Shown here piece after piece: positions 1 through 1,623 of a stretch of 64,000 nt of DNA. The stretch is from Chlamydiales bacterium STE3 (GTDB lineage: Bacteria > Chlamydiota > Chlamydiia > Chlamydiales > Parachlamydiaceae): positions 138,724 to 202,723 of the forward strand of contig VKHO01000025.1 of assembly GCA_011125455.1 (NCBI GenBank), read 5' to 3'. Made by a program: the position numbers and the translations under genes. The stretch's first letter is position 1, and every line of letters starts with the position of its first letter. The notes beneath the pieces were generated by a model. It ran no database searches. It saw only the letters and a list, made by a program, of their open reading frames with translations, and had not been told where the DNA came from.

Positions 1-595
1 GAATATTGGCAATGTAGGTCATGGGATCAAAGTGATGGTTTCGACTTGAAACGTAGATATTATTGACATCGAGCATCATGTAGATGCCTGCTTTATCCAC
101 AATGGTAGAATAAAATTCCCACTCAGCCATTTCATCTTGTTTGAAGGTCACATAAGACGAGAGGTTTTCTAAAGCAAAAGGAAGCTCTAAGTAATCCTGA
201 ACAATCCGTGCGCGCTCTGCTACAAAATCTATAACTTCTTTTGTGTAGGGGAGGGGAAGTAAATCGTGGTAGTGAGCACCTGGAGCCCTCCCCCAGCAAA
301 GATGATCCGAGACCCAAGGCGTTTTTGTTTTTTTAGTCAGCTCCTTCAAACGCTTGAGGTAATTAAAATCAAGAGGAGCCGGGCTCCCTATAGCGAGGGA
401 GACCCCATGTTGCACAACTTTATAGCGATCGAGGATTCTTTCCAGGTTTTCAAGAGGCTTTCCTCCTTCGACCATAAAATTTTCACTGATGATTTCAAAC
501 CAATCGATTGCCGGTTGATGGGTAAATATCTCTTCATAATGCGGGACGCGCAGGCCGATTCCGATACCTAAATTGGGGAGTTTTGGCAATGTCAT
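1..595 (-). CDS. DUF692 family (MNIO, MbnB/TglH/BufB-like) RiPP-modifying oxidase; partial, C-terminus beyond window edge
   Basis: Minus-strand translation from the ATG at 595..593 reads [45 protein letters not shown]... and stays open to position 1 (about 198 aa present). GIGxGLR...H...WFEIxSEN is the characteristic DUF692 TIM-barrel N-terminus. The track ORFs 132..317(-) and 266..571(+) lie inside it in other frames. Confidence 0.8.
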   Translation of the reverse strand, partial: [198 protein letters not shown]

Positions 596-605
596 AGATT
601 AAGAA

Positions 606-1031
606 TTATTGTGTGGCTTTAGCCCTTTTTTTAGCCATTTTGTCGGCTACTAATTTTACAGCTTCGTTCTTATCATCGACAGAACAAGTGCTTTGCCCTT
701 TGCAAGAACCCTGTCCTTGGCAAGAATTTTTTTCTGTTTTGCAGCGATTCAATCCTGCGCATTCGTTAAAGCCACTGCAGTATTGACTCGCAACTCGGCG
801 AGCCAATAGCTTGCCTTCTGCATCTAAGCTAGTATACGTTTTCTTTCCTTCCGCATTTAGCTCTTTTAACAGCTCTTCTTCAGGGATCACACGACCATTG
901 ATTAGTCCTGTAATTGCATCAGAAGCACTATTAGAAGATGGGGGTGGAGTGACAGCTTGAGCTTGCTCCACGCTTAGCAACCCGCCGACTAATCCGAGTA
1001 AGGCCAGGTTTTTTAGCGATTTTTTTTTCAT
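606..1031 (-). CDS. Secreted Cys-motif precursor peptide, bufferin (DUF2282/BUF_6Cys)-like, immediately upstream of the MNIO gene
   Basis: 141 aa with a Sec signal peptide (MKKKSLKNLALLGLVGGLLSVEQAQA). The C-terminal core holds 6 Cys in the motifs YCSGF, NECAG, NRCK, NSCQGQG, GSCKGQS and STCS, resembling the C(F/Y)G, N(D/E)CAG and (S/T)CxGxS motifs of DUF2282 bufferin precursors. The stop lies 10 nt from the DUF692 start, and a GGGAAA RBS precedes the gene. Confidence 0.65.
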   Translation of the reverse strand: MKKKSLKNLALLGLVGGLLSVEQAQAVTPPPSSNSASDAITGLINGRVIPEEELLKELNAEGKKTYTSLDAEGKLLARRVASQYCSGFNECAGLNRCKTEKNSCQGQGSCKGQSTCSVDDKNEAVKLVADKMAKKRAKATQ

Positions 1032-1113
1032 AAAATTTCCCGACGTTAAAGATTGTTATAATGGCCCCATTAGATCTGAGGTCTAAATATTTTGTTCTGT
1101 GCCACCTGTAAGT

Positions 1114-1141
1114 AAAAAAAGGGGCTGTACTAAGACAGCCC
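1114..1141 (-). terminator. Rho-independent terminator (hairpin GGGCTGTCTTAGTACAGCCC plus T7 run on the minus strand) between the two precursor-like genes
   Basis: Perfect stem gggctgt/acagccc at 1121..1141 is preceded on the plus strand by AAAAAAA, which is a T-run on the minus strand. Confidence 0.55.
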
Positions 1142-1164
1142 ATAAAATAGCGGTATCAATTCCT

Positions 1165-1623
1165 CTAGCCTTCATCTGCAGCTAAGTAGTGATCTTGCTG
1201 TATTGAAGAAGGGTAGCTTGTTGATGGATTGTTATAGGAAGGTTCCTCTTGCATTTGGCCTTGTTGGGTTGTTCCTTGGTTTGGATTTACACTTCTATAA
1301 TTTCCACTTTGTGTAGGTGTTCCCGCTTTGTGGTAATTACTGCTACCCGTGCTGCCTGTCGCGCCGGTACTGTATGGGTTATTGCTACCTGATTGATAAC
1401 CACTTTGTCCACTGTAATCGGCGTTGTCTGAAGTGTAATCTGGGTATTGAGGTTGTTTTGGTTTATTCCCTCCACAAGAACCAGCACCACATTTACCTGC
1501 TAAGTATTGTTCGTAGTTATTCGCTTCGCCCTCTTGCACGTCAGCTGTCAAAGACTGAGATCCAATTAGTGAGCCTGCAGCCATTCCCATTAACACAAGC
1601 TTAGTGAAATCACGTTTGTCCAT
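1165..1623 (-). CDS. Secreted protein with an AGKCG-AGSCG double Cys motif and a long Q/N/S/Y/G-rich low-complexity tail; possible second MNIO substrate
   Basis: 152 aa with signal peptide MDKRDFTKLVLMGMAAGSLIGSQSLTA, then LAGKCGAGSCGGNK, which resembles the EGKCG repeats of oxazolin/HvfA-type MNIO substrates. The rest is low-complexity SGYQSGSNNPYSTGATGSTGSSNY... sequence. Confidence 0.55.
   Translation of the reverse strand: MDKRDFTKLVLMGMAAGSLIGSQSLTADVQEGEANNYEQYLAGKCGAGSCGGNKPKQPQYPDYTSDNADYSGQSGYQSGSNNPYSTGATGSTGSSNYHKAGTPTQSGNYRSVNPNQGTTQQGQMQEEPSYNNPSTSYPSSIQQDHYLAADEG

Follow-up and report, generated by a model that had tools for sequence, protein, structure and literature searches.

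The left edge of a 64,000-nucleotide stretch of the Chlamydiales bacterium STE3 genome (contig VKHO01000025.1), called here the window at its full length, probably holds the upstream half of a Buf2-type bufferin operon in a chlamydial variant, the product of which would, by analogy with the characterised Buf2 system of Caulobacter, be a periplasmic copper binder. Copper defence by bufferins has been recognised recently and is very widespread among bacteria. STE3 is an obligate Acanthamoeba endosymbiont, and its draft genome consists of 63 contigs (PMC7225534). Direct translation of the left window edge gives three co-oriented open reading frames (ORFs) on the minus strand: the 5′ part of bufB, the gene of an MNIO/DUF692 bufferin maturase, at 1..595; a gene for a BufA2-like precursor of 141 amino acids at 606..1031; and a gene for a secreted low-complexity protein of 152 amino acids at 1165..1623. 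A database search matched the STE3 locus tags PHSC3_000865 and PHSC3_000866 at 100% identity. The stop codon of the 141-residue precursor (TAA at 608..606) and the ATG of the MNIO gene (at 595) are separated by exactly 10 nucleotides, and because the identical gene order recurs at 26 related chlamydial loci, the arrangement cannot be put down to chance. An earlier note on this DNA had read the locus as an MNIO gene beside genes for Sec-exported precursors with Cys motifs, in other words as a bufferin-like cluster for a metallophore of the ribosomally synthesised and post-translationally modified peptide (RiPP) class. This core reading is borne out by BufB as the best model for the enzyme, by the BufA2 match of the precursor, and by the DUF2063 gene present at 25 of the 26 loci. 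The ORFs, on the minus strand, lie where the note put them, its peptide sequences, six Cys residues and AGKCGAGSCG motif hold as well, and its spacing of 10 nucleotides is exact; for the 141-residue protein the count of six Cys stood, but the accompanying list gave five motifs and omitted NRCKT.

The enzyme encoded at 1..595 is, as far as its sequence tells, a BufB-type bufferin maturase. The complete codons of this ORF occupy positions 2..595, and their 198-residue translation matches PF05114 (MbnB_TglH_ChrH) with an E-value of 2e-75, in line with the DUF692 assignment made earlier. The match spans positions 1-189 of the 263 in the profile, so the window start truncates the gene. Among five NCBIfam models of MNIO enzymes, the best for the fragment is MNIO_BufB, with 244.7 bits over 188 of 262 positions, and the others score 182.5 (HvfB), 57 (ApyH), 41 (ChrH) and 33.5 bits (MbnB). 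The cut-offs of these models are 310 bits for BufB (NF050167), 360 bits for HvfB (NF003818) and 325 bits for MbnB (TIGR04159); a whole-protein cut-off is out of reach for a fragment, and the full-length ortholog of the chlamydial relative HS-T3 was scored instead. This ortholog, which shows 87% identity and 93% positives over the 198 residues of the STE3 fragment, reaches 323.8 bits on the BufB equivalog model, above the cut-off of 310, and only 241 bits on HvfB and 39.6 bits on MbnB, which are below the respective cut-offs. The methanobactin (MbnB), ApyH and ChrH types were rejected for the enzyme, as the scores of the fragment, the HS-T3 ortholog or both lie far under the cut-offs. The closest solved structure to the fragment is 3BWW, a DUF692 protein (E 7e-34). 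The fragment contains the motifs HGVSL, SDHL, LENLS and LDVNN, which we take to be the first metal-ligand motifs of MbnB-type active sites.

The bufB gene runs past the window edge, and a bufC gene in STE3 is predicted from its relatives. The two nearest relatives of the STE3 locus are those of HS-T3 and of the metagenome-assembled genome (MAG) JB084. Both show the order DUF302 gene, ortholog of the 152-residue gene, bufA-like gene, MNIO gene (292 amino acids), HvfC_N/HvfC_C gene (296 amino acids), rsmB and a Cu-oxidase_4 (YfiH-like) gene. In these relatives the DUF2063 (BufC) partner, matching PF09836/PF22106, immediately follows the MNIO gene, and that of JB084 is named "HvfC/BufC family peptide modification chaperone" by NCBI. 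The DUF2063 gene directly follows the MNIO gene at 25 of the 26 chlamydial loci, and the 26th stops at a contig edge. A DoxX gene, which the earlier note had led one to expect, is absent within 10 kb at the four domain-annotated loci around the genes of the two nearest relatives, and Lactamase_B_2 is likewise absent from the loci with domain annotation. The Caulobacter buf2 operon consists of BufA2, BufB2 and BufC2 and has no DoxX gene (PMC11626156); the chlamydial order of bufA, bufB and DUF2063 gene without DoxX therefore agrees with the published buf2 operon type. On the 3′ side of bufC in the nearest relatives lie rsmB and the Cu-oxidase_4 (YfiH/laccase-domain) gene (L001:13337-14011 and L003:13344-14018), and rsmB follows bufC at many chlamydial loci.

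The 141-residue protein is, on profile and alignment evidence, a member of a sizeable divergent BufA2-related subfamily. It is composed of a signal peptide, a variable linker, helices, a six-Cys core and a C-terminal helix. The signal peptide (amino acids 1-26; 954..1031, minus strand) shows by inspection a basic n-region, a hydrophobic h-region and a small-residue c-region with an AQA motif, MKKKSLKNLALLGLVGGLLSVEQAQA followed by V, and is of a family-specific type recognised by a 24-residue profile described below. The six Cys residues of the mature protein, C85, C91, C97, C104, C110 and C116, make up the core at amino acids 85-116 (684..779, minus strand) with the spacing C85-x5-C91-x5-C97-x6-C104-x5-C110-x5-C116. 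The NCBIfam model Cu_RiPP_BufA2 matches amino acids 81-120 with an E-value of 1.8e-9 and 37.7 bits, and it also matches 45 of 53 chlamydial relatives, the best E-value in the set being 4e-12. When the chlamydial alignment was compared by hhalign with 18 canonical BufA2 sequences, drawn from proteobacterial loci of a genome scan, a probability of 98% (E 2e-13) was obtained over the region of C1 to C5, the spacing of which (5, 5, 6, 5) is the same in the chlamydial and proteobacterial proteins. Alignments of 17 and 38 homologs show no variation at the first five Cys residues, C85 to C110, and in the smaller of the two C116 is almost invariant as well. Both alignments show conserved flanks of the core, with EEELLxELNxEGxxxYxSLxxEGKxLA before it and DKNxAVKLVxxKMAKKR after it.

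In a scan of species-representative genomes, ~38 chlamydial loci, from Parachlamydiaceae, Waddliaceae and unclassified Chlamydiales, match the 141-residue protein over its full length, whereas proteobacterial BufA2 genes match the core alone (amino acids 84-113). A profile search of 1.84 billion cluster representatives gave 153 clusters at E ≤ 1e-30 and 303 at E ≤ 1e-10, and the C-x5-C-x5-C-x6-C-x5-C core is present in 146 of the 150 best cluster representatives. The AlphaFold model has confident helices at residues 51-82 and 121-140. Relatives of the precursor in the PDB were found neither by Foldseek nor by a profile search of PDB sequences. The BufA2 model match, the hhalign comparison and the 146 core-bearing representatives together identify the protein as a divergent but genuine BufA2 relative. 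At one locus of a Chlamydiales MAG (L030:6487-6894), the frame of the MNIO-adjacent bufA copy is lost inside the Cys core (…CKGLNACKTEKMHARAKDLV…); this copy is probably a frameshift or pseudogene, and an upstream long-form copy is intact.

The mechanism that we propose follows the Caulobacter system, in which BufB and BufC jointly turn Cys residues into 5-thiooxazoles and the precursor is exported by Sec (PMC11626156). The Caulobacter Buf2 product shows a mass shift of -18 Da, with -4 Da on each of Cys II-V and a disulfide between Cys I and Cys VI; the buf2 operon is induced by copper, and its product binds copper and protects against it (PMC11626156). By this analogy, BufB and BufC of STE3 would oxidise C91, C97, C104 and C110 to 5-thiooxazoles in the cytoplasm, after which the protein would be exported by Sec, cut by signal peptidase after AQA26, and closed by a disulfide between C85 and C116. 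The mature protein of ~115 amino acids could then bind copper in the periplasm and shield the bacterium from the copper of the amoebal vacuole, where copper is a plausible stress. A shift of -4 Da for every Cys, as anticipated in the earlier note, would thus give way to one of about -18 Da in total, that is, four thiooxazoles and one disulfide. The assignment of the protein and the cluster to the Buf2 family is strong; the residue-level assignment is weaker, because the sixth Cys has moved.

The third ORF, at 1165..1623, encodes a protein that appears to be related to long bipartite precursors but has no Buf2 core. Its signal peptide (1543..1623, minus strand) agrees with the family consensus and by inspection is divided into n-, h- and c-regions (basic, hydrophobic and small-residue, respectively) as in the 141-residue protein, MDKRDFTKLVLMGMAAGSLIGSQSLTA followed by D. 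Its Cys residues, C45 and C50, lie inside LAGKCGAGSCGG, a Cys-pair module read from the sequence at amino acids 41-52 (1468..1503, minus strand). Among the three orthologs, from STE3, HS-T3 and JB084, 25 of the first 27 residues are identical, and C45, C50, G51 and G52 are invariant, with LAGKCGAGSCGG in STE3 and LAAGCKGGCGG and LAAGCGQGKCGG in the others. The consensus of the pair is LA-x-G-C-x3-4-C-G-G, the spacing being C-x4-C in STE3 and JB084 and C-x3-C in HS-T3. The rest of the alignment shows a DNADY motif, an S/G/N/Q/Y-rich region of variable length and an invariant C-terminal LAADEG.

The signal peptide connects this protein with the bufferin precursors. A profile was built from the first 24 residues of 37 other chlamydial BufA-type precursors, from which the 152-residue protein, others of its kind and the window sequences were left out, and it was run against the 569 stop-to-stop segments of the 64-kb window. 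It matched the 141-residue ORF (E 1.4e-9) and the 152-residue ORF (E 2.5e-7) and nothing else; the fasciclin-domain ORF at 4729..5223, which has a signal-peptide-like N-terminus, was not matched. The consensus over the precursors of the window and of loci L005-L042 is M-K-K-x-[DN]-[LF]-K-K-L-A-L-[LM]-G-[LIM]-x-x-G. The residues just past the signal peptide of the chlamydial precursors are not conserved, unlike the signal peptide itself, and this unusual conservation suggests that the family-specific signal peptide doubles as a recognition sequence. Preliminary evidence has been reported that the signal peptide is part of BufB-BufC recognition (PMC12452194), and a signal peptide that is conserved and common to both gene types fits this idea.

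The Cys pair provides a second connection. In many other chlamydiae, single proteins that open with the family signal peptide and end in a Buf2 domain have, between the two, one copy of LLAxG-C-x3-5-C-GG or up to six or more repeats (for example in P0014, P0016, L007, L013, L026, L029, L032, L033, L035, P0153 and P0224), and of the 146 cluster representatives with the core, 96 have at least two additional Cys residues before it. Of the 26 chlamydial loci, 18 carry the module either fused or separate, and at 9 it forms one protein with the Buf2 core. At 13 of the 26, in several chlamydial families, an ORF directly upstream of bufA has no core but combines the family signal peptide with a Cys pair. 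Two further ORFs, L010:5448-5915 and L017:4902-5723, still have the signal peptide, the Cys-pair module and the two helices that flank the Buf2 domain, but the six-Cys core has been lost; as apparent intermediates, they suggest that the separate core-less gene stems from a bipartite precursor. The family signal peptide, together with a C-x3-4-C-G-G module of the kind that other chlamydiae fuse to Buf2, makes the 152-residue protein a likely candidate for a second MNIO substrate, although we put the chance that it is in fact modified at slightly below even. If so, the product would be a disordered periplasmic protein with two thiooxazoles at its start.

Several observations weigh against the Buf2 reading or parts of it. 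The 37.7 bits of the 141-residue protein fall below the 60-bit equivalog cut-off of the BufA2 model (NF050166), as do the scores of six relatives that were scored singly. The sixth Cys lies 5 residues past C5 in chlamydiae, compared to ~13 in canonical BufA2, and is missing from some chlamydial paralogs, so that the assignment of the C85-C116 disulfide is a guess. AlphaFold confidence is low across the Cys core, with a mean predicted local distance difference test (pLDDT) score of 64.8. Domain annotation found no copper-related genes near the cluster in the window. No STE3 protein appears among the homologs of HS-T3 BufC in a search of 5.8 billion proteins, where HS-T3 itself stands at 100% identity, JB084 at 83% and the rest at ≤ 57%. 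In the genome table of an MNIO survey (PMC12452194), the rows for Protochlamydia amoebophila and Waddlia chondrophila give one DUF692 gene, one DUF2063 gene and zero Buf1, Buf2 or EGKCG precursors; a zero in these rows may reflect unannotated small ORFs, and Caulobacter CB15 is also given as zero. Among the rows listed in that table, no MNIO is entered for Simkania or for Chlamydiaceae.

Three more such points concern the 152-residue protein and lend support to the alternative that survives best, namely that the 141-residue protein works with BufB and BufC as an ordinary bufferin system, with the 152-residue protein not among the substrates. The latter could instead be what decay has left of a long bipartite precursor, or a secreted, disordered protein independent of the system, with its Cys residues engaged in a disulfide or in plain-thiolate metal binding. 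First, its gene is parted from bufA by a conserved terminator- or attenuator-like hairpin (1112..1141, minus strand). This hairpin, GGGCUGU-CUUAGU-ACAGCCC followed by CUUUUUUU, lies 3′ of the stop codon of the 152-residue ORF and is conserved in STE3, HS-T3 and JB084, with a compensatory change from U-A to C-G in the stem; its fold energy by itself is not significant (z -0.8), and the support comes from the conservation. The conserved hairpin with its T-run thus indicates that transcription may stop in part before bufA, and a partial stop is compatible with strong expression of a precursor as well as with a separate unit of transcription. Second, the protein has just two sequence homologs among 5.8 billion proteins, both positional orthologs (of HS-T3 and JB084), and its centre is variable and of low complexity. 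Third, it scores 13.8 bits on the HvfA domain model (NF050137), below the cut-off of 19.5 (E 0.036, amino acids 43-56). In addition, the series of paralogs that shed parts stepwise (L010 and L017) resembles decay, and common descent alone could explain the likeness of the signal peptides. However, the Cys pair, the GG that follows it and the signal peptide have remained invariant in three species while the remainder drifts, and the retention of core-less ORFs with signal peptide and Cys pair upstream of bufA at half of the chlamydial loci, across several families, favours selection over decay. We regard this non-substrate alternative as a serious contender, though a somewhat doubtful one. A promoter scan returned no more sites than shuffled sequence, and Rfam gave no regulatory RNA near the cluster, its sole matches in the window being two tRNAs (53656..53743, minus strand, and 60123..60195, plus strand).

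A second alternative is that the system is defective in STE3, either because bufB is truncated or because bufC is lost, leaving Cys-rich periplasmic proteins unmodified. The lack of an STE3 protein among the matches of HS-T3 BufC points in this direction, as do the draft state of the genome of this reduced symbiont (PMC7225534) and the start of the window inside bufB. The absent match may, however, be due to a contig break in bufB or to an unannotated gene as well as to a gene that is missing in STE3. Moreover, the 198 bufB codons are intact and encode a protein as close to HS-T3 BufB as described above, and both precursor genes are intact with their Cys residues conserved, which makes a defective system improbable. 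Far less probable still is an oxazolin system, in which an HvfB enzyme would act on EGKCG-type repeats: the weak match of the HvfA KCGExKCG domain to the 152-residue protein and the DUF692 structure closest to the enzyme speak for it, but the sub-cut-off score and a GKCG context that is not conserved in the orthologs (AAGCKGGCGG and AAGCGQGKCGG) lead us to reject the oxazolin/HvfA resemblance that the earlier note had seen in this protein, the Cys-repeat modules of L026, L032, L029 and L021 have no HvfA-model match, and both the fragment and its HS-T3 ortholog score higher on BufB than on HvfB.

Given the Buf2 reading, a more encompassing proposal could be put forward, tentatively and with somewhat less than an even chance of being right. 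In environmental chlamydiae, one BufB-BufC pair, recruited through the leader-like family signal peptide, may modify two kinds of targets, a folded six-Cys Buf2 domain and the C-x3-4-C-G-G pairs that number one to more than six in a protein and lie in long disordered low-complexity regions, and these targets would be either fused in one protein or split onto two genes as in STE3. If true, a thiooxazole-decorated disordered periplasmic protein would stand beside a compact bufferin, and the substrate class and the precursor logic would be undescribed for MNIO enzymes.

The genes around the cluster give no clue to copper; their products are a DUF302 protein, a TIGR03067-domain protein, an MFS transporter, a fasciclin-domain protein and methyltransferases. 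The TIGR03067-domain protein (138 amino acids, E 4e-13; 1915..2331, minus strand) is encoded between the DUF302 gene and the cluster and overlaps the DUF302 gene by 11 nucleotides. This gene may be a lineage-specific insertion, as no gene is called there in the two nearest relatives. Further into the window, an ORF of 93 amino acids (4447..4728, plus strand) contains 12 Cys residues in CxxC-type pairs (CWHC, CPHC and CCSNC) and has no signal peptide or Pfam match. Its product looks like a small zinc-ribbon-type protein, and a gene of 95 amino acids is called at the matching position of locus L004.

What is new here lies within a well-charted family. Published work already covers thousands of bufferin clusters, tandem precursor genes and Buf2 precursors 51-367 residues long, and it reports MNIOs from the Planctomycetes/Verrucomicrobia/Chlamydia group as well as bufferins from the intracellular Legionella (PMC11626156, PMC12452194); against this, the novelty claimed for the cluster in the earlier note was too strong. 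In the literature searched, nothing past a phylum-level mention ties bufferins or thiooxazoles to chlamydiae, and the chlamydial precursor subfamily appears to be undescribed, as do the helices around its core, its signal peptide and the Cys-pair modules, whether split or fused. Amoeba-associated chlamydiae (Parachlamydiaceae, Waddliaceae and relatives) harbour a sizeable divergent Buf2 subfamily of at least 153 clusters at 50% identity, the genes of which are annotated as hypothetical because the curated models score them under threshold. The conserved signal peptide, the fused and split Cys-pair modules and the core-less paralogs offer natural experiments on substrate recognition, and the family provides a testable link between copper poisoning in amoebae and the survival of chlamydial symbionts.

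Among known systems, the closest is Buf2 of Caulobacter vibrioides (BufA2-BufB2-BufC2, CCNA_03001-02999; Buf_6/12Cys), which has the gene order of the chlamydial relatives (precursor, MNIO and DUF2063 gene, without DoxX) and shares a Sec signal peptide, six Cys residues with identical C1-C5 spacing in a Gly/Lys/Asn-rich context, and a BufB-type enzyme. The chlamydial precursor differs in scoring under the curated BufA2 threshold, in the conserved helices that flank its core and in the position of C6. It also differs in its family-specific signal peptide, in the C-x3-4-C-G-G modules within low-complexity sequence that accompany it or are fused to it, and in the obligate intracellular life of the host. 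Most chlamydial lineages carry such extra modules, in an N-terminal stretch that is disordered. The HvfA/oxazolin system of Haemophilus influenzae (Buf_EGKCG, HvfB, HvfC) shares an MNIO with a DUF2063-type partner, a Sec-exported substrate and close, Gly-flanked Cys pairs that can be repeated. In contrast to that system, the chlamydial proteins have no EGKCG repeats of 17 residues and do not pass the HvfA and HvfB models, their Cys pairs lie in disordered S/G/N/Q/Y-rich sequence, and DoxX is absent from the four annotated loci.

The 'CxxxxC' family of MNIO-associated precursors (PMC12452194) likewise combines a signal peptide with a CxxxxC motif beside MNIO and DUF2063 genes, a comparison that concerns the bare motif. 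Its clusters, however, usually contain DoxX and often Lactamase_B_2, neither of which is seen at the domain-annotated chlamydial loci, and the spacing in the STE3 lineage is x3 or x4. The GIG operon/Buf2 of Legionella pneumophila is similar in being a bufferin cluster of an amoeba-dwelling bacterium, and GIG is reported to be induced by copper or gold (PMC11626156), but Legionella belongs to another phylum and has canonical Buf1 and Buf2 precursors that are caught by the existing models. Compared with these systems, the enzyme and the operon of STE3 are ordinary for the bufferin family and the precursor architecture is the noteworthy part, so that the known bufferin picture is extended rather than overturned.

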